A DNA stretch of 64,000 bases, taken from the NCBI GenBank assembly GCA_944376195.1, contig CALWBW010000003.1, positions 2,707-66,706 on the forward strand. Direction: 5' to 3'. Positions 11,191 through 64,000 of this stretch are shown one piece after another. Numbering within the stretch: position 1 is the first letter of the stretch; each line of letters opens with the position of its first letter. The notes beneath the pieces were generated by a model. That model was not told the DNA's origin, searched no databases, and saw only the letters and a list, made by a program, of their open reading frames with translations. Source of the stretch: an uncultured Clostridia bacterium. Its GTDB lineage: Bacteria; Bacillota; Clostridia; Oscillospirales; QAMX01. The translations under genes and the position numbers were made by a program.

Positions 11191-11207
11191 CGCTCCTCCT
11201 TATCATG

Positions 11208-11223: not shown

Positions 11224-11231
11224 TTTATCGC

Positions 11232-11261: not shown

Positions 11262-11275
11262 GGAAAGCCGGGAAT

Positions 11276-11506: not shown

Positions 11507-11511
11507 CTCTT

Positions 11512-11724: not shown

Positions 11725-11798
11725 ATCACTTCCATCCTCTATGTTCGCTTTACAGATACTGACGGCGTGGCTTTGGTAAGCCTCAACTAACTGAGCAT

Positions 11799-11827
11799 AG
11801 GTTAGCACACACTAACTAATATGTCAA
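11799..11827 (-). promoter_or_regulatory. Promoter of feo operon 1 with embedded GTTAG-N6-CTAAC operator
   Basis: The minus strand reads TTGACA (11827-11822)-tatta-GTTAG-tgtgtg-CTAAC-ct. The -10 is TAACCT at 17-nt spacing. The dyad sits at plus-strand 11801-11816. Confidence 0.55.
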
Positions 11828-11923
11828 GCGTTTTTTCATGAAAAAAAAGAGGAAAAAATGGATTCATTCATTTTGCACAAGTCTTTTGAGAAGTGCACGG
11901 GAAGTTCTTGCGCGGTTTTACGA

Positions 11924-11964
11924 AAAAAGCAAACGGCCCCTTTCCAAAAGGCCGTTTGCTTTTT
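11924..11964. terminator. Bidirectional terminator
   Basis: gcaaacggcc (11929-11938) / ggccgtttgc (11950-11959), flanked by an A-run and a T-run. Confidence 0.75.
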
Positions 11965-11972
11965 GTCAGACG

Positions 11973-12734: not shown

Positions 12735-12816
12735 ATGAGGGACTCCTTTCTGTTTTTCAGGTGTTTTGCAAGTGGTCAGGACTCTGTTTTAGGAGGGCAG
12801 AAAACAAAAATAAAAA

Positions 12817-12890
12817 ATTACGTAAATTCGTAAAAACGTATTGACAGGAATGCGAGGGTATGCTATTATGAGATTACGAAATTACGTAAT
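12817..12890 (+). promoter_or_regulatory. Promoter with an array of TTACGTAA-type operators
   Basis: aTTACGTAAat (12817-12827), TCGTAA, ACGTA, then TTGACA (12841-12846), 17 nt spacer, TATTAT (12864-12869), then ATTACGAA (12873-12880) and ATTACGTAAT (12881-12890). Confidence 0.55.
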
Positions 12891-12910
12891 AACAAAAAGG
12901 AGGAACGGTT

Positions 12911-13732: not shown

Positions 13733-13754
13733 CGTTTTCGTTTGCACGGTTTTG

Positions 13755-14618
13755 TCAGACAGGGCGGAACAGATGAATCCGAAAGGAAATCGTGACCGGC
13801 AGCCGGTCGAGGGCGGAAAGACGCTCCCGGCCGGCTGCCGGCGTTTTCCAGAAGTAGGGCGTCATGGCAAAAAGGTCTTGAATGACCTCGGCAGAATCCA
13901 ACAAAACCGTTCCCTCTACCGATACAAGATCCAGAGGACGAAATCCCTCGCAGGCAGGAGGTTGTTCGTCGTTGAGATACGGCGTTTCGTAGACCGCCTG
14001 CTTGAGTTCCCAGAGATGCCGCGCGCCGGGGAGTACGCAGAAAAGAACGCCGTCCGGTTTTAAGACGCGCCGGAACTCCCCGAAAGCCAGCGGCGAAAAG
14101 CAGCTGAGCAGCAGATCCGCCGTTTGCGCGGCAAAGGGAAGGTCGTAGGCGGAGGCAACTGCGAATTCAACCCCATGGTCCCGCTTTGCCGCGAAACGCA
14201 GGCAGCTTTTCGAAATATCAATGCCGGCCGCACGCGGCTCCAGTCCGGCACGGCGCAGCGCGCCGGCAATTTCCGCCGTATAATACCCCTCACCGCAGCC
14301 GGAATCCACAAAAACGGGCCTCTGTGGCGCATACTCCGTGAAAAGTGCCGCCAAACTCCCGGCAAGCGGGGCATAGTAACCGCCCGAGAGGAACCGGTTG
14401 CGGGCGGCGGCCATGCCGCGGTCGTCACCCGGCGTGCGGGAGTGCATGCGGTTTGCGGGCAGCAGATGGGTATAGCCGGCTGCCGCACGGTCAAAATTGT
14501 GCCCCTGTGCACAGCGGTAACCGGTATCGTACCGGATCAGCGCGCTGTGACAGACGGGGCAGATGAATAGGCTGTCCGATGCCGGGCAGGGAGACTTCGT
14601 CCCTTCATATTCTTTCAT
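13755..14618 (-). CDS. rlmA: 23S rRNA (guanine-N1)-methyltransferase RlmA-like
   Basis: Zn-ribbon CPVCHSAL...YRCAQGHNFD, then LLPAN...GDD and SAM motif VDSGCGEGYY. The start is ATG 14618. Confidence 0.8.
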   Translation of the reverse strand: MKEYEGTKSPCPASDSLFICPVCHSALIRYDTGYRCAQGHNFDRAAAGYTHLLPANRMHSRTPGDDRGMAAARNRFLSGGYYAPLAGSLAALFTEYAPQRPVFVDSGCGEGYYTAEIAGALRRAGLEPRAAGIDISKSCLRFAAKRDHGVEFAVASAYDLPFAAQTADLLLSCFSPLAFGEFRRVLKPDGVLFCVLPGARHLWELKQAVYETPYLNDEQPPACEGFRPLDLVSVEGTVLLDSAEVIQDLFAMTPYFWKTPAAGRERLSALDRLPVTISFRIHLFRPV

Positions 14619-14846
14619 GCAGGTCCCTTCCAATTTCGTATGAGCTACGTACAGGATAGCGTAAAAATGAATTTTGGTCAAGCAGGCGTACTTCTTTTTG
14701 TACAATTTTTGTAATTTTCCGACAGAAGCGTATAGGAGTCGGCAAAATGCATAGAAAAACTTGCCGTAATCTGCTATATTTCGACAGAAAAATGTTCATA
14801 TTTGCTGGACATGCAGAACTTGATGTGTTAAGATAATACAAATGTT

Positions 14847-14870
14847 AAAATCCCGCTTTGCGGGATTTTT
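14847..14870 (+). terminator. Terminator-like hairpin in the uracil-permease leader (possible attenuator)
   Basis: aaaatcccgc (14847-14856) / gcgggatttt (14860-14869) plus T, about 40 nt upstream of the start codon. No upstream plus-strand gene exists for it to terminate. Confidence 0.4.
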
Positions 14871-14909
14871 GACAGATTCGGTATTACGAAACATGAGGAG
14901 GATGTCAAG

Positions 14910-16280
14910 ATGGCAAAGAAACCTGCTTCGCAGATCGGTTCGGAAGGCATCTATGATGCCCGCGTCCTTGGTGCTCCCAAAATGCTGGTGTTGGGTGTGC
15001 AGCATATGTTCGCCATGTTTGGCGCGACGGTGCTGGTGCCGGCACTTACCGGGTTGGATATCGCGACGACCCTGTTGTTTGCGGGACTCGGCACACTGCT
15101 TTTCCACTTGCTGGCAAAAGGGAAGGTTCCGGCATTTTTGGGAAGTTCTTTTGCGTTTATCGGTGGATACAACGCGGTGCGCCTGGTGGACACCATGGCG
15201 GACGGTACCCCGGTTTATGACAATGCACTGCTTCCGTACGCCTGCTTCGGCGTAGCAATTGCGGGGCTGATGTATGTAATCCTGTCCGCACTCTTTAAGA
15301 TTTTCGGCGTAAGAAAGGTTATGCGCTTCTTCCCGCCGATTGTGACCGGCCCGATTATCATTGCAATCGGCCTGACGCTTTCTTCCTCCGCGATTACCAA
15401 CTGCAATGCCAACTGGCTTGTGGCCGTGGTTGCCATCTTGATTGTAATTTGCTTCAATATGTGGGGCAAGGGCATGTCGAAGATCATTCCGATCCTGTTG
15501 GGCGTGCTGGGCTCCTATCTCTTTGCGCTGATTATTGACCCCGCTGCGCGGGATTCTGTCGTCACGGCGGTCTCGGAGGCACAGTGGTTCGGCCTGCCGG
15601 TGGTGTGGGACCACACGGTGTTTGCCCTGTTTGCCGGAGATGTGGATATGGGTACGCTGTGGTCTGCGGTCTTCACGATTGTTCCGCTTTCCCTGGCTAC
15701 GATGGTGGAGCATATCGGCGATATGTGCGCGATCAGCTCGACGGTTAACAGAAACTACGTGCAGGCCCCCGGTTTGCACCGCACCCTTTTGGGCGACGGC
15801 CTTGCCACGACGCTTGCTTCCCTGTTCGGCGCGCCTGCCAATACGACCTATGGCGAAAACACCGGCGTTTTGGCGCTTTCCAAGGTATATGACCCGCGTG
15901 TGATTCGGATTGCGGCCTATATTGCGATTCTGGTTTCGTTCTGCCCGAAGTTTGCGGCGCTTGTCTCCGCTATGCCGGCCGCGACAATCGGCGGCGTTTC
16001 TCTGGTGCTTTATGGAATGATCTCCGCAGTCGGCGTCCGGAACGTGGTAGAAAATAAGGTGGACTTTACGAATACCCGCAACGTGATTATTGCCGCCCTG
16101 ATCCTGGTGCTGGCTATCGGCGTCACTTACAGCGGCAATATCCAGATCGGCGTGGTCTCCCTCTCCGGCCTTGCGGTGGCTTCGATTGTCGGTATTATTT
16201 TGAATGCCGTCCTGCCGGGCAAAGATTATCAGTTCGGTATGGATCTGCGCGGCGATACCTCCGTCAACTTTAAAGTTTAA
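14910..16280 (+). CDS. uraA: Uracil permease (NCS2 family)
   Basis: 456 aa with LGVQHMFAMFGATVLVPALTG and a polytopic NCS2 pattern. RBS GAGGAGG. Confidence 0.88.
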   Translation: MAKKPASQIGSEGIYDARVLGAPKMLVLGVQHMFAMFGATVLVPALTGLDIATTLLFAGLGTLLFHLLAKGKVPAFLGSSFAFIGGYNAVRLVDTMADGTPVYDNALLPYACFGVAIAGLMYVILSALFKIFGVRKVMRFFPPIVTGPIIIAIGLTLSSSAITNCNANWLVAVVAILIVICFNMWGKGMSKIIPILLGVLGSYLFALIIDPAARDSVVTAVSEAQWFGLPVVWDHTVFALFAGDVDMGTLWSAVFTIVPLSLATMVEHIGDMCAISSTVNRNYVQAPGLHRTLLGDGLATTLASLFGAPANTTYGENTGVLALSKVYDPRVIRIAAYIAILVSFCPKFAALVSAMPAATIGGVSLVLYGMISAVGVRNVVENKVDFTNTRNVIIAALILVLAIGVTYSGNIQIGVVSLSGLAVASIVGIILNAVLPGKDYQFGMDLRGDTSVNFKV

Positions 16281-16382
16281 ACTGGTCTGAATCCTGCTTG
16301 CGTGGGCGGCTGGAATACCGGCTGCAAAAAACGCGGGGGTTTTGGAAACGGCCGTTCGTCTGGCAGACGGGCGGTATATGGA

Positions 16383-16419
16383 AGCGTCCCTCCCTGTCAG
16401 GAGGGCGCTTTCTTTTTTT
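16383..16419 (+). terminator. Terminator after the uracil permease gene
   Basis: agcgtccctcc / ggagggcgct stem followed by TTTCTTTTTTT. Confidence 0.75.
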
Positions 16420-16516
16420 GCGATTCCGCCGCCTGCTTTTCCGCTGGAACGGCAGTGCAAGATATGCTATACTATCCGTAACAAAACCGTCTGGCATAAG
16501 CAGAAGGAGGGATTTT

Positions 16517-17995
16517 ATGCGTACGATTACAGCGGACCTTTATCAGGAACGTGGGCCGCGCGACTGCTTTGGCACGTTTTGCGTCGGCGCGGGCCGCGCC
16601 AACGAAGCGCTGCGCTACGATTTTACGGAGCACTTGAAAACCGCGATTGCAAGCTGCGGTTTCCGTTACCTGCGTTTCCACGGGCTGTTCCACGACGATA
16701 TGGCCGTTTATCGGGAGGACCGTGACGGACATCCCATCTATAACTGGCAGTATATCGACGCGGTGTTTGACAAACTACTTGCGTTGGGTATCCGGCCGTT
16801 TGTTGAACTCTCGTTTACGCCGCGCGCCCTGGCGTCCGGAGAAAAGACGATCTTCTGGTGGCGCGGAAATGTGACGATGCCGAAAGACCTCGCAAAATGG
16901 GGCGCGCTGGTAGAGGCGTTTGTACAGCACTGTCTGGAGCGTTACGGACACGACGAGGTCGCACAGTGGTTTTTTGAAGTCTGGAATGAGCCGGATTACC
17001 CGGCCTTCTTTGCCGGGGATATGCACGATTATTTCCGCCTGTATGACGCGGCTGCGCGTGCGGTGAAGTCCGTCAGCCCCGTATTCCGTGTCGGCGGACC
17101 CGCGACTTCTTCCAACCGCTGGATCCCGGATATGATCGAGCACTGCGTGTCGGACGACGTCCCACTGGATTTTATTTCGACGCATACCTATGGCGTCGAG
17201 GGTGCGCTGGATGAATTTGGACGTGATTTGCACCGCCTGCTGGAGGATCCCGATACGATAGTCCGCGACGTTCGACGGGCGCGCCGTCAGATCCTCGACA
17301 GCGCCATGCCCCACCTGCCGCTTTACTATACCGAGTGGAGCGCCTCGTATTCCAGCCGGGACAATGTCCATGACTCCTATGTCTCCGCGCCCTATATCCT
17401 CTACAATTTAAAACGGATTGAGGGAAGCGTGGACGCCATGTCCTATTGGACGTTTACGGATGTTTTTGAAGAGGGCGGCCCGGCGCCTACGCCGTTCCAC
17501 GGCGGATTTGGTATGCTGAATTTGCAGGGCCTCAAGAAGCCCGCGTTTTATGCGTATGAGTTTTATCATGCGCTGGGCGCGCGCGAACTCACCTGCGAAG
17601 ACCCGGACGCCTGGGTCTGCCATGACGGCGACGACATCCAGGCGCTTTTCTGGAACTACCGGAAGTCCCGGCAGGGCGATGTGCCGAACGAGCACTATTT
17701 TACGCGCGACCTGCCGCCGCAGAGCAGCCAGGAGGTGTCGCTTGCCGTAGAGAGCCTTACCCCCGGAACATATCTCTATACGGAACGGCGCATCGGGTAC
17801 GGAAAGGCGGACGTCTTTGATGCTTACCGGGAGCTGGGCTGCCCGGAGAACCTGACGCGGGAGCAGGTGGCGGCGCTGGCCCTTTGTTCTCGCTGTACGC
17901 CGGTGTGCGAGCTCATCACGGTGGATGGAACGTTTTCCCGGGAATTTTCGCTTGCGGAAAACGAAGTCTGCCTCGTGGAACTGAAGAAACTTTAA
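16517..17995 (+). CDS. Glycoside hydrolase family 39 (beta-xylosidase-like), cytoplasmic
   Basis: ATG 16517 follows GAAGGAGGG. Motifs FRYLRFHGLFHDDM, FFEVWNEPD (acid/base) and YYTEWSASY (nucleophile context). Confidence 0.82.
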   Translation: MRTITADLYQERGPRDCFGTFCVGAGRANEALRYDFTEHLKTAIASCGFRYLRFHGLFHDDMAVYREDRDGHPIYNWQYIDAVFDKLLALGIRPFVELSFTPRALASGEKTIFWWRGNVTMPKDLAKWGALVEAFVQHCLERYGHDEVAQWFFEVWNEPDYPAFFAGDMHDYFRLYDAAARAVKSVSPVFRVGGPATSSNRWIPDMIEHCVSDDVPLDFISTHTYGVEGALDEFGRDLHRLLEDPDTIVRDVRRARRQILDSAMPHLPLYYTEWSASYSSRDNVHDSYVSAPYILYNLKRIEGSVDAMSYWTFTDVFEEGGPAPTPFHGGFGMLNLQGLKKPAFYAYEFYHALGARELTCEDPDAWVCHDGDDIQALFWNYRKSRQGDVPNEHYFTRDLPPQSSQEVSLAVESLTPGTYLYTERRIGYGKADVFDAYRELGCPENLTREQVAALALCSRCTPVCELITVDGTFSREFSLAENEVCLVELKKL

Positions 17996-52743: not shown

Positions 52744-54504
52744 TTACAAGGGTGGTTGGTGCTTTTCTAAAAATCCCACAAGATCCTCTTCCTGAATATC
52801 CACGGAATCTCCCGAGCCATCCTGCGCATAGAGACGGAAATATAGGGGGTCAGACTCCGGACTGTCGGCGCCAACCAATAGAGAAAATGGCCCATTTGTC
52901 TCATAAATCCGAATATACAGGCCGGAACCGGACTCTTCATAGAAATAGTGATCCAACGAGGACCAACGCAAGGCGCTTTTTTCCTGAGAAAGACGGAGGA
53001 TATCCTCTATCGTGAGAACCTGCGCCGGTTCCGTGGAATCGGGTGCGCTTTCCTGCGGAAGCAGAGTAGTTTCATAGAATACCGCACGCAAAACAATTAA
53101 ATACGCAGCTTCCGCCAAAAGGTCGGGATTTTCCTGCAGTGTCCTGGGAGTAAACGATTGCAGGATTCCTTCGCCCATATCAAAGGCCATGACGGCAAGC
53201 AGGCTGGAAGTGTCCGGCGTCACCGGAATCCGCTCTCCTTCCTGATAAGAAGAAAACGACCAACCGATTACCGATGCATTTTCCGGAAACGCAAAATATG
53301 TGAGCAATGAACCGCCGTATTGATCTGTTTCAACCTGAATTTCAACACCCGTAGAGACACCATCCGTAGTACGAAAGTTGACAAAACATTGGATTTCTTT
53401 TGCAAGAGAGGTCAGAGAGATGGGAGCGCTTCTGACACATTCTCCGTAGCTCCACTGTTCAACATAAAGTTCTCCACTGCCTACCCGGGTTCCTAATTCA
53501 ACCTCAAATTGCGCGGAAGGGGATCGGGCGGAATGAGAGACATTTATCAATCGCAGGTTATCATGAGGGGAAAGAGGAATGGTCAAAAAACAAACTGCCA
53601 GAATGAGACCAAGCAGCAGCGAGAGCGCCAGGATCCAACGCTTTGGTTTTTGATAAGAGAGGATTCGCTGAATGCGGGCTTTTACGTCAAGTTCCCCAAA
53701 GGCCAGAGGATAAAACGACGGCGACTTCGGGCGGATACTGCAATGAAACAGTGCCGTCGCATATGCACGGCGCTCGTCTTCGCCCAGTTCTTTCAGCACT
53801 TTTTCATCACAGGAACCCTCAATATCCCGGCAAAATACCAGATATGCAATCCATAAAAGCGGCTGGAACCAGTAAACGGAGAGTAGAAAGAACCCGATTA
53901 TTTTCCAAATGTGATCTTTCCTTCGAATGTGCGCACGCTCGTGGGATAAAACATAGGTAAGATCTTGATCGGGTATTTGATAGGGAAGATAAATTACAGG
54001 GTGAAATAATCCCAGAACAAAGGGCGAAACCGCCCATTCGCTCTGTTTCACCCGCGTTTGCAAAGGGATGGCAGTGGCGACACGGTGCTTTAAAACGAGA
54101 TAACTTCCTATTGCATAGAAGAACATTGCCAATATCCCTGCAACCCAAATATGGGACAAAACAAGCGACCAGACCTGTGCGGGGTTTACACTATCTCCAG
54201 GGTCCGGCGCCATGGAACTGGCTAAAAAGGGATTCACGGCATCGTCTAAAAGCGCTACGCCGGTTTCAATTTGAGGGGAATCTGTTTGCATGCTTTCTTG
54301 TAAAATGGGTTCGGCACTGGGAATTAAACTGAACGTACTTTCCAGGGAAATTGGGCAGATAAGGCGCAGGGCAACGAGCCCCCACAGCGCGCAACAAATC
54401 CATTTTGGCATGGTGCGAAGGAACAGGCGAATTATTAAGATTGCGAGAATCAGCCAGCCGGCAGTCAGGCCCAAATTGACGAGTTTGAAAAAAACAGCCT
54501 CCAT
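52744..54504 (-). CDS. BlaR1/MecR1-family (M56 peptidase) membrane sensor with non-PBP extracellular domain
   Basis: N-terminal TM helices, zinc motif HERAHIRRKDH, and a C-terminal ~280 aa lacking an SxxK penicillin-binding motif. It lies 4 nt downstream of the BlaI-like gene. Confidence 0.82.
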   Translation of the reverse strand: MEAVFFKLVNLGLTAGWLILAILIIRLFLRTMPKWICCALWGLVALRLICPISLESTFSLIPSAEPILQESMQTDSPQIETGVALLDDAVNPFLASSMAPDPGDSVNPAQVWSLVLSHIWVAGILAMFFYAIGSYLVLKHRVATAIPLQTRVKQSEWAVSPFVLGLFHPVIYLPYQIPDQDLTYVLSHERAHIRRKDHIWKIIGFFLLSVYWFQPLLWIAYLVFCRDIEGSCDEKVLKELGEDERRAYATALFHCSIRPKSPSFYPLAFGELDVKARIQRILSYQKPKRWILALSLLLGLILAVCFLTIPLSPHDNLRLINVSHSARSPSAQFEVELGTRVGSGELYVEQWSYGECVRSAPISLTSLAKEIQCFVNFRTTDGVSTGVEIQVETDQYGGSLLTYFAFPENASVIGWSFSSYQEGERIPVTPDTSSLLAVMAFDMGEGILQSFTPRTLQENPDLLAEAAYLIVLRAVFYETTLLPQESAPDSTEPAQVLTIEDILRLSQEKSALRWSSLDHYFYEESGSGLYIRIYETNGPFSLLVGADSPESDPLYFRLYAQDGSGDSVDIQEEDLVGFLEKHQPPL

Positions 54505-54508
54505 GCCT

Positions 54509-54868
54509 TTACTCCCCCTGCTTTTCTAAAATACGCTGAATTTCTGCAATTCCTGTATCAGATAATGCCTGCCTCCGTCCAAAGGCTGCAAGAAAAGCAG
54601 GTAACGATCCCTCAAATGTGTTTGTCATCAGCGCTTCCATTTCTGCGGCTTGCACGTCTTCTTTGCTGACGAGAGACGTGACGATCGTGTTTTCACTTTT
54701 CACGACGCCTCGATCCTTTAACCTTTTGATTACGGTATAAGTGGTAGTTTTACTCTATCCCAGTTCTTCGCGGCAAAGCTTCGCGAGCTTGGTGCTGTTA
54801 ATCGGTTCATGGCGCCAGAGAATGAGACAAAACCGGTATTCACTTTGAAAAATTTTTGGGGTTGACAT
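54509..54868 (-). pseudogene. BlaI/MecI/CopY-family repressor gene interrupted by an in-frame amber codon
   Basis: The reading frame is MSTPKIFQSEYRFCLILWRHEPINSTKLAKLCREELG-TAG-SKTTTYTVIKRLKDRGVVKSENTIV.... The TAG at 54757-54755 sits where the family has a conserved Trp (TGG). Confidence 0.75.
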
Positions 54869-54881
54869 GTTGCCTCCTTGT

Positions 54882-54938
54882 AAAGTCTAATGGATTAGAC
54901 CTTTTTTAAAGTCTAACGTATTAGAACAACTTTGTCAA
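54882..54938 (-). promoter_or_regulatory. Two operator dyads plus promoter of the BlaI/BlaR1-like operon
   Basis: aaaGTCTAATggATTAGAC (54882-54900) and aaaGTCTAAcgtATTAGAac (54908-54927). On the minus strand: TTGACA (54938-54933), 17 nt spacer, TAGACT (54915-54910). Confidence 0.55.
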
Positions 54939-55465
54939 GAATAATACGAAAAAAGATTTTTCCAAACATTCCGTTTTTCAGTAAACTGAACAGGAACTTA
55001 GTAAATGGCGAAAAATATTTACAAAACTGCCGGAATACCGACTTGCTTGAGTCCTATCGCAAAGAGCTGGAGGAAGGAGATATTTCCTCAATGTAGAACG
55101 GATTGTCAATATGGCGCTTTCGTTCTCCATGGGTTTCCTCATACCGGCATTTCTCAAAACAGCAAAACGTGGTCGAAGCAAAAAAATTATATATTTTAAG
55201 CAGACAGCCTGGCGACGGATGCCGCAAATCTATATTTCACGAAGAAAAAAGGGCATTTCACGAAAAAGAAATTTTTTATTCAAAATTTCCGATATAATCA
55301 CTGGGCAAGCAATAGGAGTGTAATGGATGCATAGGCGGACAGAATGGAAATAAATTGAACAGGAGTCCATGTATGGATTTCGTGGATCGTGAGAAATGAT
55401 CCGTGGTCTGGTTAATATCCAAAAAGAATCTGCCCGTACCATAAAGAAAGGAGGATTGGCGTTAA

Positions 55466-55939: not shown

Positions 55940-55985
55940 GTTACAATAGAAGAGAATCATTCATAATTGCTTGGAGGATGAAAAT

Positions 55986-56282
55986 ATGAATATCAGCAAA
56001 ATGGTAAGTGGAACTGTACTGAATATTTCTCTGGAGGGTCGGCTGGATACAACAACTGCGCCGCAGCTGGAAGCGGAACTCAAGCAGTCTATGGAAGGAA
56101 TCACACAACTTGAATTGGACTTCGATAAGCTGGAATATTTGTCTTCTGCCGGACTGCGGGTCATCCTGGGCGCACAGAAGACGATGAACAAGCAAGGGAA
56201 AATGGTCGTTCGTCATGTCAACGAAACCATTATGGAAGTGTTTGAAGTGACCGGCTTCATCGATATTCTCACGATCGAATGA
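55986..56282 (+). CDS. STAS-domain anti-sigma-factor-antagonist-like protein (SpoIIAA/RsbV family)
   Basis: 98 aa with ...LDTTTAPQLEAEL...LDFDKLEYLSSAGLRVILGA.... RBS GGAGGA. Confidence 0.88.
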   Translation: MNISKMVSGTVLNISLEGRLDTTTAPQLEAELKQSMEGITQLELDFDKLEYLSSAGLRVILGAQKTMNKQGKMVVRHVNETIMEVFEVTGFIDILTIE

Positions 56283-57682
56283 AAGGGGAGATGAGGCAGG
56301 GTGTGAAAATGAGGCTGCTGGAGCAGGCGGCTCAAGCGGCAAAAAAGGAAGACCTGTTGAAAGATATTGTCGTTTTACATATCAACCACTGCGTGGAGAA
56401 CACGTTTTATTTTAACGACGTACTCAGAGGACTGTTCCGTCATGTAACTCTGCTGACACCGCCCTATAGCAATCAGGATATCCCTGAAAATTACACAGGA
56501 TCGTGCTATCACGGTATGCGGCGAAACGGCGTCTATTATCTGATGAAAAATGGGATCGAGACAGGCCGCCGCAGCACGGAATTTCTCGAGTCCACCATAC
56601 TTCTGCTGGAAGAAGCTTTTCGTGGGGAACTGATTCCCCTGCTGCGTCAGGGGAATCAGTTGCTGATTGTTGAGGATGGAGGATACCATTTTGAGGCGCT
56701 TCCTCGTATAAAGCAGTTGTTTCCGGAGGTGGAAGATCGTATTATTGGCGTAGTGGAACAGACGACTTCCGGAACCAGAAAAAGCATGAGCCGGCAGGGC
56801 TACCGGTATTCTTATCCATGCGCCAGTATTTCTCGATCGGATATTAAAATGCATGTAGAATCCATCTTTATCGGGCAACGAATTGTGGAAGAGCTCGGAC
56901 TGATGCTGTATGCGGCAGATGCTTTTTTCTCTTTCCATTCCGTATTGCTGCTTGGCTACGGAATCATAGGGCGCAGCTGCCGTATGGCTTTAACAGGGCG
57001 TTACTGCCGGCTGGAGGCCTATGATACGAATCCACGCATGTTGAAAGTCGCCGAGGATGACGGCCTGTGGGTTTATTCTCAACCGTCTCCAGAGATGTTT
57101 TCAGAAGACACAATTGTCATAGGCTGTGTGGGCGCGCCTTCTTTTGGCGAGGGCATGTTTTGTGCTTTCCTGGAAGGCCGGGGAACAAATCTTTATCTGG
57201 CCAGCGGCTCTTCAAAAGATGTGGAGTTTTCCTACTTTCTTCGGTATTTAAAGGGGGAAGAAGCAAACATTCCCTGCCTTGTGCTTGAAAAACAGGAGGC
57301 CGCCGAATGGTATGTCCGCTATGATTTTCGTTATGGCGGCATAGAAAAAAACGTGTATTTAATGGCGGAAGGGAAACCGGTGAATTTTTATCGAAAAGGC
57401 GTGATCAGTCTGACTTACCGCGTGATTGATCTGGTGTTTACGGAAATGCTTCAAATGGCGCTGTACTTATGCCGAAACCGGAATATCCCTCCTCAGCTTT
57501 ATATATTAGGAGAAGATAATCCAATCACAAGAGCTGTTTCCGAAAAAGAAATGCTCGATTTGTGGTTTCAGAAAAATCATTTTTGGTATCAGGGGGCGCT
57601 GGAATCTTTTTTACAGCCTCATCCCCTGGCTGGTGAACTGCGAAAGAACACATGGGAGAAGGATCATGGAGAAAATTATTAG
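56279..57682 (+). CDS. Divergent S-adenosyl-L-homocysteine-hydrolase-fold protein (function unknown)
   Basis: By-eye colinear matches to SAHH motifs: LLIVEDGGYH (DDGGD), VVEQTTSGTRK (EETTTG), LLGYGIIGRSCRMAL...RLEAYDTNP (GYGDVGKGCA...EIDP), VIGCVGAPS, LASGSSKDVEF (NIGHFDxEI), YLMAEGKPVNF (LLAEGRLVNL). The ATGA overlaps the STAS stop. Confidence 0.6.
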   Translation: MKGEMRQGVKMRLLEQAAQAAKKEDLLKDIVVLHINHCVENTFYFNDVLRGLFRHVTLLTPPYSNQDIPENYTGSCYHGMRRNGVYYLMKNGIETGRRSTEFLESTILLLEEAFRGELIPLLRQGNQLLIVEDGGYHFEALPRIKQLFPEVEDRIIGVVEQTTSGTRKSMSRQGYRYSYPCASISRSDIKMHVESIFIGQRIVEELGLMLYAADAFFSFHSVLLLGYGIIGRSCRMALTGRYCRLEAYDTNPRMLKVAEDDGLWVYSQPSPEMFSEDTIVIGCVGAPSFGEGMFCAFLEGRGTNLYLASGSSKDVEFSYFLRYLKGEEANIPCLVLEKQEAAEWYVRYDFRYGGIEKNVYLMAEGKPVNFYRKGVISLTYRVIDLVFTEMLQMALYLCRNRNIPPQLYILGEDNPITRAVSEKEMLDLWFQKNHFWYQGALESFLQPHPLAGELRKNTWEKDHGENY

Positions 57683-59435
57683 GCGGACATTTTTCAAATT
57701 TTTCGGCCCTACCCTGATAGCGTCATTGGCGTTGGCCATCGTCTCCATGACCGATTTGATTGTAGCAGGCCAGCTTTTGGGCAGCAGTGCGTTTACCGCT
57801 ATCAGTCTGGCATTGCCGGTGACAATTTTTGTGCAAATCATTGCGATGATTTTCGGCAGCGGCGCCGGAATTGTACTATCTAATTATTTGGGCCAGGGTC
57901 AGAGAGACCGCTGCAATCAGGTGTTTACCACCGCGCTGCTTTCGGCATTGGCCATAGGCGTCGCAGCAGCGGTGGGAGGTCAGCTTTTTTTAGATCAGTT
58001 ACTGCTGCTTTTGGGTGCGCAGCCCGGCGAAAGCATGCATTATGCTCGCCAGTATATTGGTGTTTTGCTGCTTGGTATGCCCTTTTTGATTTTGGCGCCG
58101 GTGCAGTTTACTTTTTTGCGCAATGACAGTCATCCCCGCTACACAATGTTTTGCGTATTGGCAAGCGGTATATGGAACCTGATCGCAAACATTTTGCTTG
58201 TACTTCTGTTTGATCTGGGACTTGCGGGTATTGCAATTGGCACCGTCACTTCCCAAATACTTGCTTGCGTGCTTTCCGGCCTGAAACTTTATCAAAAAAA
58301 CGGCAGTTTTCATCTGATAAAGGCTGGCTGGTCTTTTTCTGCCGTTCAGGAGATGGTAAAACCCGGTTTGCCGGCCGCTATGATTTTCTTTTTTCAGGTA
58401 GTGCTCACACTGGTAATCAATCATACTCTGGCTATGACCGGCGGTGATCGTGCGGTGGCCGTATACGCCGTGGTAAAGTACTTGATAACGTTTTTCTATG
58501 CCTTGTACGATGGTGTGACTGGTTCCATTCAGCCGATGCTGGGTATCTACCAGGGCGAAGGAGAAATTGATAATTTGCGCCGCACGGTTTCTGTATCTTT
58601 TAAAATGACGTTGCTGATTGCGGTGGGACTCACTTTCGTTATGGAAGTGGGAGCGCCGGTAATCAGTTTGATTTTTGGCGTGGAATCCGATATGCTGGAT
58701 ATCACTGTAACGGCTATTCGTATTCAGGCATTATTCTGCATTACAGCCGGAATACTGGCTTTTCTGGGCGCTTTTTATCGATGCACCGGCCATTCGGGAG
58801 TGTCCATGATCATTGCCGTGTGCAATAATTTGATTTTCCCAGTGTCTATCATTCTGCTGCTGGCAAATTTTACGTCTCTTGGCAGCAATAGTGTTTATTG
58901 GGGGCTGGTTCTTACCGATTACGCCACTTTTCTGGTGTTGTTTGGCGTTGTGTGGATACTGCGTAAACCGCAGGAATCCCGATTGCTCCTGCTCCCTGTT
59001 AAGGATACTCAGAGCAATGGACAGACATATCAAGTGCTGATCCAGGATAAATACGAAAATATTCCCCAGATTTCCACAGAAATCGATCGCTTTTGCGAGG
59101 ATCGTGGCGTCAGTTTCAAAAAACGATATTATATTTCTCTTTGTATGGAAGAGCTTGTCGTCAATGTGATTCAAATGGGATTTCATAAAGAGCATGATAA
59201 CTATATTGACATCCGGGTATCAGTATTGGAAAACGGGCAAGTGGCCCTGCGCATTCGGGACGACGCGGTGGAGTTTGATCCGACCCAATCCCAGGAGGTT
59301 TCCCCGGGAGAGCTGTTGGATGGTTCCCATCAGGAGGAGCATAACGAATTGGGCCTGCTCCTGGTGAAGAAAGTAGCCAGTTCTTATTCTTACAAGCGCA
59401 CGGTGGGATTTAATAATTTTATGGTAGTGCTTTAG
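57666..59435 (+). CDS. MATE-family transporter fused to a C-terminal RsbW/SpoIIAB-like GHKL (HATPase_c) domain
   Basis: About 450 aa of 12-TM MatE-like sequence, then the N-box EELVVNVIQMG, ...IRDDAVEFDP... and ELGLLLVKK. ATG 57666 overlaps the previous gene by 17 nt. Confidence 0.75.
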   Translation: MEKIIRRTFFKFFGPTLIASLALAIVSMTDLIVAGQLLGSSAFTAISLALPVTIFVQIIAMIFGSGAGIVLSNYLGQGQRDRCNQVFTTALLSALAIGVAAAVGGQLFLDQLLLLLGAQPGESMHYARQYIGVLLLGMPFLILAPVQFTFLRNDSHPRYTMFCVLASGIWNLIANILLVLLFDLGLAGIAIGTVTSQILACVLSGLKLYQKNGSFHLIKAGWSFSAVQEMVKPGLPAAMIFFFQVVLTLVINHTLAMTGGDRAVAVYAVVKYLITFFYALYDGVTGSIQPMLGIYQGEGEIDNLRRTVSVSFKMTLLIAVGLTFVMEVGAPVISLIFGVESDMLDITVTAIRIQALFCITAGILAFLGAFYRCTGHSGVSMIIAVCNNLIFPVSIILLLANFTSLGSNSVYWGLVLTDYATFLVLFGVVWILRKPQESRLLLLPVKDTQSNGQTYQVLIQDKYENIPQISTEIDRFCEDRGVSFKKRYYISLCMEELVVNVIQMGFHKEHDNYIDIRVSVLENGQVALRIRDDAVEFDPTQSQEVSPGELLDGSHQEEHNELGLLLVKKVASSYSYKRTVGFNNFMVVL

Positions 59436-59452
59436 TATGTCTGCCGGAAAGG

Positions 59453-61834
59453 ATGGAAAATATGAGGGAAATTTTTACTGTTTTCCGTAAGAAGAGCGCA
59501 TGGGGGCATATGGTGTTAAGCGCTGTGGTGTTCTTTGCCATAGCATTGCCCTTTCGCAGCTTGTTCACCCTTTTGCCGGGGGTGACGGAGATCCGTCCTG
59601 CCAATATGGTGCCGCTGGTATTTGGAATTCAGTTTGGCCCAGCCGCCGCCTGGGGTATTTCCATAGGGAATCTGATTTCCGATATTCTGTCAGGTTCTCA
59701 TGTATTTGTTTGCGCCACGGGGTTTGTGGTAAACTTTTTTTATACCTATATTCCATACAAACTGTGGTACACGCTGCGTCTGGGCAAAGAACCCATCCAC
59801 CCAATCCGCCTCAATACGGTACAAGAGATCGTAAAATATATTTTGGTGGTTTTAATTGACTCTTTTGTTACCACCGTGTCTTTGTCCCTGATTTTCGAGG
59901 CTGCGGGATTCCAGTCGTTTTCTTCTTCTTTTCCGCTGTTGTTTTTCAACAATTTCGATTTCGCGATCATTCTGGGCATTCCGGTGCTCTCCTTCTGGAA
60001 TAAGACGCGTCTGCGCTCGGAAATACCGGAATACCGGAAAAATCCAGGGACCCGACGCAGTGTTCGCTGGTTGGATTTGCCGCTTGTTATCATTGCCGTT
60101 ACTGGTGTGGGGTATTTTTTCTATTCCCTGCTTCAAGGAGGAATGATAAACAGCTCCCTTGCACTGGGGGTTCTCTGCATCGCGATCGCAAGTCTGATCG
60201 TTTACGCGTTTCGTCCTTCCGACAAAGTGGAGCCTCTGCCCCCCAGCCGGGAAGGCGTCAAGATTTCTATTAAGGCGAAGGTAACCATCGGTTTTCTGCT
60301 GCTGACCTTGGTATTCCTGATTTTGTTGGCAGTCGTGTCTTATAATGCGCTTCAAGTGGGCGGAGAACTTGAGCGGCTGGAGGTTTGGAACTATATTTAT
60401 CTGGTGCTGGGAATTACCATCAACCTGCTTTACGGTATTGCCATTCTGTTTTTGTGGTATGTAGAGCGGAATATTACCACCCCTGTGGAGCGTCTTTCTT
60501 ACCTGACGGAGCTATATGCCAGACAAGAACATGAACATGACGCAAGTCTTGCATCGCGTTTGCAGAAACTTGCTGACGCGATTCCAAAAGGAGATGAAAT
60601 TGGCGCTTTGGCGCTTTCCTTCCGGAACATGATGGATGAGCTGGACGACTATATGGCAAACTTGGCGGTGGTCACCGCAGATAAGGAACGCATTGCCACA
60701 GAACTCAATGTCGCCACGCAAATTCAGGCCTCTATGTTGCCCTGTATTTTCCCGGCATTCCCCGGCCGCAAGGAGTTTGACGTCTATGCGACTATGACCC
60801 CGGCCAAGGAAGTGGGCGGAGATTTTTATGATTTCTTCCTGATAGACGACGATCACCTGGCGCTGGTGATTGCAGATGTTTCAGGGAAAGGGGTACCGGC
60901 GGCATTATTCATGGTGATTGCCAAAACTTTGCTGAAAAATGCTGCGCAAACGGGTCTTTCACCGAAAGCGATACTGGAGAAGGTGAATAATCAGCTCTGT
61001 GAAAATAACGAAGCGGAAATGTTTGTCACCGTGTGGCTGGGGATTTTTGAAATTTCCACTGGGAAACTGATTGCGGCCAATGCCGGCCACGAGTACCCGG
61101 CAGTCAGACATCAAGGCGGGAAATTTGAGCTTTACAAGGATAAGCACGATTTTGTGTTGGCTGGCATGGAAGGCGCTCGCTATCGGGAATATGAGATGAT
61201 TTTAAAACCCGGCGATACCCTGTTTGTCTACACAGACGGTGTGGCGGAAGCCACTGACGCCACCAACACGCTGTATGGAACGGATAGGATGCTAACTGCA
61301 CTCAACCGGAACGAGAAGGCTGACCCCGAGAAACTTCTCCAAAGCGTGAAGGAGGATATTGATATGTTTGTGGGCGAAGCGCCGCAGTTTGACGATATCA
61401 CCATGCTGGCATTTAAAATCAAGGATTTTCAACTGGAAGGTATGAAAAAAATAAGCGTTTCTCCGCAGCTTGCCAGTATTGATACCGTCACGGACTTTTT
61501 TGAAACCTGCCTGACGGAGCAGAATGCGCCTGTAAAAGTAGTGTCCCAAATCAATATTGCAGTGGACGAGATTTTTTCCAATATTGTGCGGTATAGTGGC
61601 GCGACATCTGTTTCAATAGGATGCCGGGCAGAAAAGGACCACGTTGTGCTCCGCTTTGCGGATAACGGGAGACCTTATGACCCGACGGAAAAGGATGACC
61701 CGGATATCACGCTTTCGGCTGAGGAACGGGACATTGGCGGGCTTGGCATCTTTATGGTTAAAAAAACAATGGATGACATTTCATATGTGTATGCTGATGG
61801 CTTTAACATTCTGACTATCCAAAAACGATGGTAA
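59453..61834 (+). CDS. Membrane QueT/ECF-S-like domain, HAMP-like linker, PP2C phosphatase and RsbW-like GHKL domain in one protein
   Basis: N-terminus: ...TEIRPANMVPLVFGIQFGPAAAWGISIGNLISD...YIPYKLWY. PP2C: VGGDFYDF, IADVSGKGVPAALFM, VYTDGVAEA, DDITMLAF. GHKL: DEIFSNIVRY, ADNGRPYDP, GGLGIFMVKK. An alternative start is ATG 59462. Confidence 0.8.
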   Translation: MENMREIFTVFRKKSAWGHMVLSAVVFFAIALPFRSLFTLLPGVTEIRPANMVPLVFGIQFGPAAAWGISIGNLISDILSGSHVFVCATGFVVNFFYTYIPYKLWYTLRLGKEPIHPIRLNTVQEIVKYILVVLIDSFVTTVSLSLIFEAAGFQSFSSSFPLLFFNNFDFAIILGIPVLSFWNKTRLRSEIPEYRKNPGTRRSVRWLDLPLVIIAVTGVGYFFYSLLQGGMINSSLALGVLCIAIASLIVYAFRPSDKVEPLPPSREGVKISIKAKVTIGFLLLTLVFLILLAVVSYNALQVGGELERLEVWNYIYLVLGITINLLYGIAILFLWYVERNITTPVERLSYLTELYARQEHEHDASLASRLQKLADAIPKGDEIGALALSFRNMMDELDDYMANLAVVTADKERIATELNVATQIQASMLPCIFPAFPGRKEFDVYATMTPAKEVGGDFYDFFLIDDDHLALVIADVSGKGVPAALFMVIAKTLLKNAAQTGLSPKAILEKVNNQLCENNEAEMFVTVWLGIFEISTGKLIAANAGHEYPAVRHQGGKFELYKDKHDFVLAGMEGARYREYEMILKPGDTLFVYTDGVAEATDATNTLYGTDRMLTALNRNEKADPEKLLQSVKEDIDMFVGEAPQFDDITMLAFKIKDFQLEGMKKISVSPQLASIDTVTDFFETCLTEQNAPVKVVSQINIAVDEIFSNIVRYSGATSVSIGCRAEKDHVVLRFADNGRPYDPTEKDDPDITLSAEERDIGGLGIFMVKKTMDDISYVYADGFNILTIQKRW

Positions 61835-61854
61835 TACGGAAAAAGAAGGAACGT

Positions 61855-63531
61855 ATGGATATGCGAAGCAGAAAATTTTACCGATTCGGCGCATGCTTTC
61901 TTGTATTGCTTCTTTTGTTGTCCGGCCTGGCGGGCTGCAGGACAGAACAACAAGGGGAAAATGTTGTAATTCTTTATACAAACGATGTCCACTGTGCGGT
62001 AGATAGCTATATCGGGTATGCCGGACTTGCAGCATATAAGGCGTGGATGCAGGAGAGCACTCCCTATGTGACGCTGGTAGACTGCGGGGATGCTCTGCAG
62101 GGGGATATTATTGGCACCATATCCCAGGGCGAGTATTTGATAGATATTATGAACCAGATCGGATATGACTTTGCTGTGCTGGGAAATCATGAGTTTGATT
62201 ACGGCATGAAGCAACTTCAAACCCTGCTGGAAGAGGCGGAGACACAATATTTGGGCTGTAATATCCGGTATACAGGTACTGGTTTGAATGCTGTTTCGTC
62301 CCTCAAGCCTTATGAGCTTGTCTCATATGGGGAGATAATGGTGGCTTTTGTAGGAGTCTCTACCCCGGAAAGCATTGCCCAGTCTACGCCTGCATATTTT
62401 ATGGACGAGTCCGGTGACCTGGTCTATGATTTTTACGGAGACAGCGGAGAGACGCTGTATATGCAGGTTCAGGAAACGGTGGACGCGTGCCGTGAGGAAG
62501 GCGCAGACTATGTCGTTGTGTTGGCGCATTTGGGAGACGACGAGAATTTTGCTCCTTTTCGTTCTATCGATTTAATTGCCGCTACTACCGGCATTGACGT
62601 AGTGTTGGATGGCCATTCTCACAGTGTGATACCTTGTGATATTGTAAACAATAAAAACGGAGAAAAGGTGCTGCTGTCTTCAACCGGCACGGGACTTATG
62701 AATATTGGACAGCTGGTGATTACGGCCGATGGAAATCTTACCGCCGGGCTCATCAGTGATTTTCCGGATGTTGATGAGGAAACCGATATCTTTGTAAAGG
62801 AGATACAGAGCCAATACGAGACGGAAATGAATCGAACGATAGCCTATACCGATGTGCAGCTTACTACCAAGTCGGAGTCTGCCATCCGTTTAGTCCGAAA
62901 CCGCGAGACCAATTTGGGTGATTTGTGCGCCGACGCGTATCGGGCGGTTTCCGGGGCGGATATTGCCTTTGTCAACGGCGGCGGCATTCGTGCCGATATA
63001 GAAGCGGGGGATATTTCCTATGGAGAGATCATCGCCGTCCAGCCATACGGCAACACGCTTTGCGTTGTCGAGGCAACAGGCCAGGAAATTTTGGACGCAC
63101 TGGAAATAGCCAGCCGGTCAACGATGGCAGAAATGAGCGACGGTGAAAATGCTGTTGGCGAAAACGGCGGTTTTTTACAGGTGTCGGGGCTTAAATACAC
63201 AATTGACACTTCCATTCCTTCCACAGTTGAAATGGATAATGCAGGAATGTTTGTATCTTTGGGAGAAAACCGGCGAGTCAAAGACGTACAGGTGTTGCAG
63301 GCGGATGAAAGTTATGTACCAATCGATCCGGCGAAGACTTATACGCTGGCTTCCCACAATTATCTGTTGAAACAGGGCGGCGACGGTTTGAATTTATTTA
63401 CGGACAACGTATTGACTATAAATGAGGGTATGCTGGATTACCAGGTGCTTATCACCTACATTACCGACTATCTCGGCGGTACGATAGGTAGTGATTATGC
63501 CCAGCCTCAGGGCCGGATCACAGTTGAATAG
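61855..63531 (+). CDS. Bifunctional metallophosphatase/5'-nucleotidase lipoprotein (UshA-like)
   Basis: Lipobox LLLLSGLAGC. Metallophosphoesterase motifs NDVHC, DCGDALQG, GNHEFD, and a 5'-nucleotidase C-terminal domain. Confidence 0.85.
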   Translation: MDMRSRKFYRFGACFLVLLLLLSGLAGCRTEQQGENVVILYTNDVHCAVDSYIGYAGLAAYKAWMQESTPYVTLVDCGDALQGDIIGTISQGEYLIDIMNQIGYDFAVLGNHEFDYGMKQLQTLLEEAETQYLGCNIRYTGTGLNAVSSLKPYELVSYGEIMVAFVGVSTPESIAQSTPAYFMDESGDLVYDFYGDSGETLYMQVQETVDACREEGADYVVVLAHLGDDENFAPFRSIDLIAATTGIDVVLDGHSHSVIPCDIVNNKNGEKVLLSSTGTGLMNIGQLVITADGNLTAGLISDFPDVDEETDIFVKEIQSQYETEMNRTIAYTDVQLTTKSESAIRLVRNRETNLGDLCADAYRAVSGADIAFVNGGGIRADIEAGDISYGEIIAVQPYGNTLCVVEATGQEILDALEIASRSTMAEMSDGENAVGENGGFLQVSGLKYTIDTSIPSTVEMDNAGMFVSLGENRRVKDVQVLQADESYVPIDPAKTYTLASHNYLLKQGGDGLNLFTDNVLTINEGMLDYQVLITYITDYLGGTIGSDYAQPQGRITVE

Positions 63532-63966
63532 GCAGGGTCTGGCCTGCTAAAAATTAACAGCGGAATACAATCCCTCAGATTGTGGTTTCCGGGCTGATAT
63601 GCTATAATATGTCGTATCTGAAATGGGCCCGTATTTGACTGTTTTGTTCTGGCGGTAATATTTTCGAGTTTGATATTTTCTTTTCGCGGCGCCCATAGCG
63701 CATCTATGTATCGGAACATCAGGGAGACTGGTGAGCGAAAGGGTTAAGTTTCCGTCGGCAGCCGGCCTGCGGAAAGAGGTTTTTTGATTTATTGAATCCG
63801 AATAAAACAATGATTTAAATGAAGGGTGGCAACGGGTCGTTTTTTGACGGACAGGCGGCGACATCGGAGGCCAGGAAGACACTGCGCGTTGTGCTTATGG
63901 CGATCAAAGCAACCACGAAGGTATTCGCGTTATGGCTGGGAAATAGGGAGGGTGAGGTGAAACGGT

Positions 63967-64000
63967 ATGCTGCGTATTGGAATATGCGACGATAATCAGG
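63967..64000 (+). CDS. Possible response-regulator gene start (runs off the window)
   Basis: ATG after GGGAGGGTGAGG. MLRIGICDDNQ resembles the N-terminus of LytTR/OmpR-type receivers. Only 11 codons are visible. Confidence 0.3.
   Translation, partial: MLRIGICDDNQ

Follow-up and report, generated by a model that had tools for sequence, protein, structure and literature searches.

We analyzed a 64,000-nucleotide (nt) stretch of DNA from an uncultured Clostridia bacterium (contig CALWBW010000003.1; hereafter, the window), in which four genes at 55986-61834 encode a STAS protein, a protein with the fold of S-adenosylhomocysteine hydrolase (SAHH), a MATE-type transporter with a C-terminal GHKL domain (GHKLa), and a membrane phosphatase that ends in a second GHKL domain (GHKLb). 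We consider it somewhat better than an even bet that this cassette is a self-contained, σ-independent partner switch, which would act on proteins and not on transcription. To our knowledge, partner switches are textbook regulators of σ factors, with only a handful known to act on other proteins. The original prediction, made from the sequence alone, saw in these genes all parts of a partner-switching module; the antagonist, the phosphatase and the kinase domain GHKLb stood up in our analyses, whereas the transporter-fused GHKLa proved degenerate and is probably not a kinase. The four genes are as follows.

55986-56282, + strand: open reading frame (ORF) 1, STAS protein, 98 amino acids (aa); ATG start with a GGAGGA ribosome-binding site
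56279-57682, + strand: ORF 2, SAHH-like protein (SAHHL), 467 aa; other possible starts at 56291 and 56309
57666-59435, + strand: ORF 3, MATE-GHKLa protein, 589 aa
59453-61834, + strand: ORF 4, QueT-like/HAMP/PP2C/GHKLb protein, 793 aa; probable start at 59462

Results

Organization of the Cassette

The tight, co-directional packing described originally was recovered in the ORF list, and both overlaps between genes were read directly in the sequence. In the first (ATGA, 56279-56282), the stop codon TGA of the STAS gene (56280-56282) shares letters with the SAHHL start codon ATG at 56279; the second, of 17 nt (57666-57682), contains the ATG of the MATE gene at 57666, which has a strong GGGAGAAGGA ribosome-binding site upstream, also read directly. 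The SAHHL start is ambiguous, as homologs align from 56279 or from 56291, and the Met at 56309 is common to all. For the last junction, the 17 letters described as the gap (59436-59452) are present, but the phosphatase gene more likely starts at the ATG at 59462, because an AAGGA is properly spaced before it and homolog alignments begin there; the gap to the MATE gene would then be 26 nt.

The STAS Antagonist

The first gene encodes a single-domain STAS protein (Pfam, E = 2e-13; TIGR00377, 70 bits against a cutoff of 53.45) that also gave a weak match to MlaB in NCBIfam. As the original prediction had it, the protein carries a serine in a phosphorylatable context. This residue, Ser54 (codon 56145-56147), lies in the motif YLSSAGLRV and aligns with the phosphorylated Ser58 of SpoIIAA; the SpoIIAA and RsbV reference sequences served solely as alignment guides. 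The motif is invariant in 23 of 23 aligned STAS proteins from this and related cassettes, so that the protein has the makeup of a partner-switch antagonist, a single STAS domain with a conserved phosphorylatable residue. Across loci, the STAS proteins share 64-87% identity, compared to 37-80% for SAHHL, and between the window and Qiania dongpingensis the values are 75% and 37%, respectively. STAS is thus conserved far beyond its neighbors, which fits a protein with several partners.

A Membrane Phosphatase with an Intact Kinase-Type Domain

The domains predicted for the fourth protein were recovered by profile searches, the HAMP-like linker only weakly.

59519-59998, + strand: QueT-like domain (Pfam QueT)
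60467-60646, + strand: HAMP-like region (weak, E = 0.0019)
60845-61420, + strand: PP2C/SpoIIE domain (Pfam SpoIIE, full model, E = 4.9e-50)
61460-61825, + strand: GHKLb, residues 670-791 of 793 (HATPase_c_2, E = 3.9e-18)

With the N-terminal 300 aa as the only query, the QueT match reached 35.4 bits and passed the gathering threshold of 33.7; the full-length protein, at 32.4 bits, stayed just under it. The family is matched by 21 of 29 phosphatase homologs. About 9-10 hydrophobic segments lie N-terminal to the HAMP region. Sequence profiles identified no solved S-component relatives of this domain from energy-coupling factor (ECF) transporters. Because the QueT-like domain is fused to HAMP-PP2C and the cassette holds no ECF T or A genes, it does not correspond to a stand-alone S component, and we take it to be a sensor and not a transporter. 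The phosphatase domain has the PP2C metal-aspartate motifs GGDFYD, DVSGKG, TDG and DDIT in its translation, as in phosphatases of the SpoIIE family. The best NCBIfam match of the protein is SiaA (E = 1.2e-19), at 70 bits against a cutoff of 700.

The C-terminal GHKLb domain has an intact N box (DEIFSNI), G1 (ADNGRPYDP) and G2 (GGLGIF). The N box, G1 (DxGxPY) and G2 (GGLG) are kept in all 30-odd copies of the domain, as in kinases of the HATPase_c_2 family. Since all three boxes are intact, GHKLb is likely the STAS kinase. Together, the STAS, GHKL and PP2C assignments of the original prediction all hold in profile searches.

A Transporter Carrying a Degenerate RsbW-Fold Domain

ORF 3 likewise has the composition assigned to it, a MATE transporter followed by an RsbW/SpoIIAB-like GHKL domain, which was recovered by Pfam MatE, TIGR00797, HATPase_c_2 and a fold search.

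57675-58958, + strand: MATE domain, about residues 4-431 (Pfam MatE, TIGR00797)
59049-59402, + strand: GHKLa, residues 462-579 (HATPase_c_2, E = 7e-14)

MatE matched in two stretches (E = 9.5e-34), and TIGR00797 scored 151.8 bits over residues 15-409, against a cutoff of 147.4. Hydrophobic segments cover residues 8-432, and the Asp in the first transmembrane (TM) segment is near-invariant. With two MatE repeats, about 12 TM segments and a family-level hidden Markov model (HMM) score, the protein belongs to the MATE family of the MOP superfamily.

Modeled alone, GHKLa gave a mean predicted local distance difference test score (pLDDT) of 89.8, and its best fold matches were SpoIIAB, RsbW, UsfX and the RsbW domain of Rv1364c. 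The best-matching SpoIIAB and RsbW entries in the PDB are complexes with their STAS partners. GHKLa thus has the fold of the HATPase_c_2 kinases; it departs from them in G1 and G2, which in the window read DDAVEF and NELGL, with the glycines lost. Indeed, in at least 55 of 58 MATE-GHKL clusters, E stands in place of the first glycine of G2 and A, C or L in place of that of G1, with the N box kept. Loss of these glycines of the Bergerat fold predicts absent or strongly weakened ATP binding. On this ground, we take GHKLa to be probably a noncatalytic domain on which STAS docks, and not a kinase.

Degenerate GHKL Domains on Other Transporters and on SAHHL

The original prediction named the transporter and the SAHH-fold protein as the only plausible outputs. 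Comparison with related loci (numbered L001 onward) supports this view, as RsbW-like domains are fused there to MATE transporters, ABC ATPases, SDF symporters and SAHHL itself. Specifically, a degenerate GHKL domain stands at the C terminus of amino-acid ABC ATPases (L015, L017, L037, L006/L040 and L063), at the N terminus of SDF symporters (L006, L007, L022 and L063; hhalign probability 97.7%, E = 2e-12), and at the C terminus of SAHHL (P0208 in L065, HATPase_c_2 E = 5e-16; partial in L047). The loci with such fusions and enough flanking sequence also hold one STAS protein (two in L006), one PP2C phosphatase and one intact GHKL domain; the exception is L047, in which a separate intact GHKL was not found. 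A minimal arrangement occurs in L065, where three genes (STAS / SAHHL-GHKL / QueT-PP2C(-HD)) make up the system and no transporter is present. What these domain arrangements most simply have in common suggests that a single set of STAS protein, kinase and phosphatase serves several target proteins, each marked by an RsbW-fold receiver.

One of these loci, L063 (positions 1-17818), is a variant that lies within a Nif11-leader cluster for a ribosomally synthesized and posttranslationally modified peptide (RiPP), and its arrangement recurs in L064. It begins with a STAS gene, an HlyD-like gene, two C39/ABC exporters and Nif11-leader precursors that contain GG cleavage sites. Then come a radical SAM/SPASM maturase, a MATE transporter with a degenerate GHKL domain, a glycoside hydrolase family 3 (GH3) enzyme in the slot of SAHHL, a HAMP-PP2C protein and an intact GHKL. 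The last two members, an importer of the amino-acid ABC type and a symporter of the SDF family, each carry a GHKL tag.

Conservation of the Cassette and Its Neighbors

Related loci were scanned with one genome per species. This gave 51 loci, and the 43 that hold a close-family SAHHL gene were analyzed over ±10 kb with start-trimmed ORFs and six-frame HMM scans. Within this distance of the SAHHL gene, QueT-PP2C was found in 38, MATE in 36 and STAS in 30 of the 43 loci, and most of the absences fall at contig ends. The synteny whose absence would have spoken against the original prediction is thus present in about 40 other genomes. The same gene order is seen at 76% and at 37% SAHHL identity, including in the isolates Q. 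dongpingensis and Blautia schinkii, in both of which the last GHKL is a separate gene of 135-137 aa. Overall, kinase and phosphatase form one protein in the window and 11 loci, and in about 20 loci the kinase has a gene of its own. Besides Sedimentibacter and Thermacetogenium, the hosts comprise Lachnospiraceae, Oscillospiraceae and other Clostridia of gut and rumen. A chance juxtaposition or an assembly artifact, to which the decayed genes flanking the cassette (a truncated BlaI and a truncated permease) might point, has a negligible probability; it is refuted because both the gene order and the overlaps are repeated in isolate genomes and across dozens of independent assemblies.

A σ gene is not a regular companion of the cassette. 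None was found at 52-64 kb of the window, so that the cognate σ factor of a classical partner switch is missing there, and among the about 40 relatives an extracytoplasmic function (ECF)-type σ gene adjoins the cassette in one lineage only (L001, L002, L003 and L018). An ordinary anti-σ switch, in which GHKLb or GHKLa would sequester a σ factor encoded elsewhere and MATE and SAHHL would simply be cotranscribed, is in our judgment distinctly unlikely. GHKLb is an intact RsbW-like domain, the σ gene of that one lineage lies directly 3′ of the kinase gene, and the window stops 2.2 kb downstream of the cassette, with the rest of the genome outside our view. However, this σ factor is ECF-type, and the σ factors that RsbW/SpoIIAB-type kinases are known to bind are of the SigB/SigF group. 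Moreover, fusions of the RsbW fold to four different non-σ proteins would be left unexplained.

That no σ factor or DNA-binding output is encoded nearby holds for the window. The statement cannot be generalized, because the window ends so soon past the cassette and because LytTR regulators, GGDEF cyclases and exporters of RiPPs are often its neighbors in relatives. Such GGDEF, LytTR and NHLP/Nif11 genes may be lineage-specific inputs or outputs. A further explanation makes them the target: the switch would control a neighboring signaling enzyme or regulator, such as a diguanylate cyclase, a LytTR two-component system or a peptide quorum-sensing circuit, with MATE and SAHHL as accessories. GGDEF genes flank the cassette in L004, L042, L044 and L032-L034, LytTR genes paired with HATPase_c_5 kinases adjoin about 15 loci, NHLP/Nif11 RiPP export genes adjoin about nine, and SiaA is the best match of the phosphatase. 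Nevertheless, we regard this explanation as quite improbable, as such genes are neither in the window nor constant across loci, unlike MATE-GHKL and SAHHL, and the SiaA score is a tenth of its cutoff.

Other arrangements at these loci are recorded here as observations. Contractile-injection-system genes (Pvc16_N, an AAA ATPase and unknown proteins of 616 and 236 aa) lie directly 5′ of the cassette in L001, L013, L019 and L021 (about 1-9500). On the 3′ side, L001, and also L002, L003 and L018, have a serpin gene together with the ECF-type σ gene, and L013 has the serpin only. B. schinkii DSM 10518 carries two paralogous whole cassettes (L040 on contig 4 and L044 on contig 46): one copy comes with PNP_UDP_1, a STAS-APH fusion and a 1135-aa fusion of substrate-binding protein (SBP), permease, ATPase and GHKL, and the other with a GGDEF gene and NHLP-type exporters. 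Two further families of unknown proteins that recur next to cassette genes have no match in Pfam or NCBIfam. One, of about 452 aa (L009, 7542-8900; L012, 3404-4771), lies directly 3′ of an extra MATE-GHKL copy. The other, of about 435 aa (L037, 6525-7835; L048, 8658-9959), has an extra MATE-GHKL directly 5′ in L048, not in L037, and contains a motif like HxxxDG that recalls those of condensation or acyltransferase domains. The 433-455-aa proteins of L009, L012, L037 and L048 were compared with SAHHL and are not hidden paralogs of it.

SAHHL Is a Divergent Relative of SAHH

The second protein has no Pfam family and no AdoHcyase match, and it scored 28 bits against NCBIfam ahcY (TIGR00936), whose cutoff is 497.6, so that it falls outside the AhcY equivalog. 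Sequence matches to SAHH in the PDB gave E = 7e-6, and 7e-16 with a profile. The AlphaFold2 model of SAHHL (pLDDT 92.8; predicted template modeling score, pTM, 0.91) bears out the divergent SAHH fold proposed originally: SAHH structures take all of the top 50 places in the PDB fold search, with probability 1.00 and template modeling scores of 0.55-0.68 normalized to the query (TMq) and 0.61-0.73 normalized to the target (TMt). The fold is the two-domain SAHH fold with the Rossmann domain for NAD, in which GYGxxG and D249 are conserved. SAHHL has about 120 homolog clusters. The family counts about 50 clusters at 50% identity in its close group and about 219 at E ≤ 1e-30, and its invariant motifs are EDGG, EQTTSG, K190, E194, GYGxxG, SSSK and PxNF.

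Identity to SAHH is 15-21%. Residues were mapped through HMM alignments to the Thermotoga maritima and archaeal SAHH structures and are given in what we take to be the human SAHH numbering (H55, T57, E59, D131, E156, K186, D190, N191 and H301). SAHHL retains the NAD GxGxxG motif with its acidic residue, and H34, D133 and K190 are the equivalents of human H55, D131 and K186. Fixed changes are T57 to N36, E59 to C38, E156 to Q161, D190 to E194, N191 to S195 and H301 to S312. The protein therefore does not have the full set of catalytic and adenine-binding residues of AhcY, and because the adenine-contacting residues are not conserved, its substrate is probably not S-adenosylhomocysteine (SAH). 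AhcY and the noncatalytic AHCYL1/IRBIT have the same fold in both domains, but the similarity is far under the cutoffs of the family. Judged from these residues, SAHHL is a distinct paralogous family with a conserved pocket and probably not a SAH hydrolase; as its likeliest role we propose that of a regulated, NAD-dependent enzyme of the nucleoside type, a metabolite sensor being less likely. Nucleoside-related genes neighbor it in some lineages, a 5′-nucleotidase in the clade of the window and a PNP_UDP_1 protein resembling methylthioadenosine/SAH nucleosidase in Qiania and B. schinkii. These neighbors, which are not constant, give a hint of nucleoside chemistry.

SAHHL domains also occur outside the cassette. 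They form the C-terminal half of 750-770-aa Hanks-type kinase proteins (L005, 9683-13392; L058/L059, 4166-11443; L060/L061), in a conserved cassette where the fusion gene stands between the gene for a small cupin and one for a viperin-like radical-SAM protein (PADLOC pVip, E = 4e-22), and a giant protein of the STAND or PNP-FGE-sulfatase type opens the series. By its gene content, this kinase-SAHHL/viperin-like cassette looks like an uncharacterized conflict or defense system. SAVED, PRTase-CE and cytidine deaminase domains are the fusion partners of SAHH-like domains that are more distant (E about 1e-35; P0302, P0292 and P0286), which suggests that SAHH-fold domains may be effectors in nucleotide-signaling immune systems. 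In the literature searched, no relevant paper was found on an association of SAHH with SAVED or with PRTase-CE/HD-CE.

These relatives bear on another explanation, in which the cassette is a biosynthesis-export or conflict module: SAHHL would make or destroy a modified nucleoside (a toxin, a signal or an antiviral), MATE would export it, and the switch would gate the process. The fusions of close SAHHL homologs to Hanks kinases beside viperin-like and STAND/PNP-FGE-sulfatase genes, those of the distant domains, the contractile-injection-system genes that precede the cassette in four loci, an enzyme slot that varies (GH3 in L063), and the kept Lys, Asp and His equivalents and NAD-binding motif all speak for it. 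On the other side, none of the four window proteins (0/4) matches PADLOC, no phage or plasmid carriage was found, no defense genes surround the cassette in the window, and no chemistry is known for the SAHHL family. We consider this explanation unlikely in its own right, and it overlaps with the σ-independent switch rather than excluding it.

Proposed Mechanism and Its Weaknesses

In what we infer to be the best reading, the switch controls the GHKL-tagged transporters and SAHHL posttranslationally. GHKLb would phosphorylate STAS on Ser54 and thereby turn it off. A small molecule or membrane signal at the QueT-like/HAMP module would set the activity of PP2C, which would restore unphosphorylated STAS. 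This form would dock on the GHKLa receiver of the MATE pump and change its transport activity. SAHHL would be a second client of the switch, and its product or substrate would perhaps be the MATE cargo. ABC importers and SDF symporters with a GHKL tag would be further targets of this STAS protein in relatives. A bolder proposal, which we put forward tentatively and hold to be possible though doubtful, is that the degenerate RsbW fold is a general STAS receiver tag, through which one switch would control a MATE transporter, an amino-acid ABC importer and an SDF symporter, together with a new SAHH-like enzyme that depends on NAD and acts on nucleosides. The family of this enzyme would be shared with viperin-, kinase- and SAVED-linked conflict systems, and the window would hold the core of an unrecognized, transporter-level regulatory network in gut Clostridia.

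Several observations weigh against a σ-independent switch of this kind. In 13 of the 43 loci no STAS gene lies within ±10 kb, so that STAS may act from elsewhere in the genome, or some lineages may have a module that works without it. Because SAHHL was the query by which the loci were gathered, its apparent universality is partly ascertainment. In L063 the GH3 enzyme occupies its slot, and P0175 (L062) is a MATE-GHKL protein that lacks cassette partners over the 8 kb 5′ of it, on a contig that ends ~270 nt downstream. In the window, SAHHL carries no GHKL tag, and its link to the switch consists of adjacency and the two fusion cases. Many relatives have LytTR regulators, GGDEF cyclases or an ECF-type σ gene beside the cassette, and in these genomes such neighbors could be the actual outputs. 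With regard to the GHKL domains, the glycine loss in GHKLa suggests, without proving, that ATP binding is lost, DxG is retained in a few lineages (L012, L045, L047 and L048), and the intact GHKLb could, by its motifs, instead be an RsbT-like activator of PP2C.

Relation to Known Partner Switches

The cassette resembles the RsbU-RsbV-RsbW and SpoIIE-SpoIIAA-SpoIIAB modules of Bacillus in its single-domain STAS protein with a conserved serine, its HATPase_c_2 kinase and its SpoIIE-type PP2C. It differs from them in that it has no σ factor, an extra degenerate RsbW-fold domain is joined to MATE, its phosphatase has a QueT-like polytopic sensor, and an SAHH-fold gene lies between the STAS and transporter genes. 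STAS control of transport has precedents in the C-terminal STAS domain of SulP/SLC26 and in MlaB, which acts with the MlaFE ABC transporter. In these, however, STAS is in direct contact with the transporter, either as part of the same chain or as a permanent subunit, with no kinase/phosphatase cycle or RsbW-fold adaptor.

Outputs other than σ factors are already known for partner switches (SypE/SypA, SiaABCD, HsbA and All4160), as are PP2C-RsbW fusions (Rv1364c). SiaABCD and HsbR/HsbA/HsbD, which act on diguanylate cyclases, and HenR/All4160 of Anabaena are reported to be partner switches that regulate enzymes directly and not σ factors. SiaA, like the cassette phosphatase, is a HAMP-PP2C membrane protein. 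These systems differ in having other target classes, no GHKL tag on transporters and no SAHH-fold component. SypE of Vibrio fischeri, with its STAS partner SypA, and Rv1364c of Mycobacterium tuberculosis combine an RsbW-like kinase and PP2C on one polypeptide that acts on STAS (PMC10120452; PDB 3KE6), and the output of SypA is likewise not a σ factor (PMC10120452). SypE differs in being cytoplasmic, with a receiver (REC) domain and the order kinase-REC-PP2C, and Rv1364c contains PAS and STAS domains in addition. Both lack a membrane QueT/HAMP sensor and a pseudokinase carried by a transporter. The original prediction did not recognize the composition of the cassette as a described system, and in agreement with this, no description of MATE-GHKL or of SAHH-like proteins with STAS was found in the literature searched. 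The combination of an RsbW-fold pseudokinase tag on transporters, a QueT-like phosphatase sensor and the SAHHL family is absent from the literature and curated model libraries searched.

Genomic Surroundings of the Cassette

The features flanking the cassette in the window are the following.

52744-54703, - strand: BlaR1-type M56 peptidase gene, then a BlaI (Penicillinase_R) ORF of 64 aa
55466-55939, + strand: truncated amino-acid ABC permease, 157 aa (TIGR01726, E = 2.6e-20, residues 18-111 only)
55940-55967, + strand: candidate σ70-like promoter, GTTACA-16-CATAAT (9 of 12 positions), just 5′ of the STAS gene
61828-63531, + strand: 5′-nucleotidase/metallophosphoesterase (Pfam 5_nucleotid_C, E = 2.3e-40, and Metallophos); likely start at 61856

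The promoter match is a weak candidate only, since σ70-like sites are no more common in the region than in shuffled sequence. No riboswitch or RNA leader was found 5′ of the cassette in a search of 50-64 kb of the window at E ≤ 1, and none was found in seven related loci at the gathering score. Downstream, the 5′-nucleotidase is probably a lipoprotein, to judge from a signal peptide ending in LAGC. Its orthologs lie 3′ of the fused PP2C-GHKL gene in L008, L009, L022 and L023, and its position after the cassette is conserved only in the close clade of the window. The LytTR regulator or histidine kinase found past it in L009 and L023 had no match in 63531-64000, where the window ends.

Upstream, the permease ORF encodes the first three TM helices and then an unrelated acidic tail; its best match is a cystine permease. 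It is 34-37% identical to the permease part of SBP-permease fusions that adjoin the cassette in L015, L017, L037 and L006, and it is possibly the relic of a GHKL-tagged ABC importer, a likeness at the family level only. The BlaI ORF matches the C-terminal half of the repressor only, so the regulator gene appears truncated, and 54700-55460 contains no convincing ORF.

The first 50 kb of the window hold ordinary chromosomal genes of an anaerobe, such as those for an FeFe hydrogenase, an S-layer homology (SLH) protein, a glycoside hydrolase of family 43 (GH43) and FeoB. The GC content falls from 0.52-0.60 there to 0.44-0.485 from ~50 kb to the end of the window, a step from about 0.55 to about 0.47. 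The lower GC content that the original prediction named together with a probable acquisition is thus real, but acquisition itself is plausible only. It is plausible because of the GC drop, the decayed flanking genes, the differing flanks of homologs and their occurrence in metagenome-assembled genomes (MAGs) of several families: the closest cassette homologs (75-86% identity) share with the window no flanking gene apart from the 5′-nucleotidase, and they come from MAGs assigned to several families. No mobility genes were found; an integrase, tRNA or repeat boundary at the ~50-kb GC step was not looked for. The 5.8-kb cassette DNA had no match in phages, and plasmid matches were limited to the SAHHL protein, which has distant homologs of 26-30% identity on plasmids of Streptomyces and Kitasatospora. 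Cassette copies 64-75% identical to that of the window (L013 to L017) come from MAGs labeled Sphaerochaetaceae, Anaerovoracaceae, unclassified Clostridia and Bacillota, mixed labels that may reflect either horizontal transfer or misbinning.

Discussion

If our favored interpretation is true, this would be the first case, in the literature searched, of a partner switch hard-wired to transporters through a pseudokinase adaptor. We offer the hypothesis that efflux and uptake could in this way be switched within seconds without transcription. In addition, an undescribed SAHH-fold family emerges, with recurrent links to protein kinases and more distant ones to antiviral signaling domains. The cassette is conserved in many abundant gut and rumen Clostridia, and its presence in two cultured carriers, B. 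schinkii DSM 10518 and Q. dongpingensis, makes experiments on this regulation feasible.

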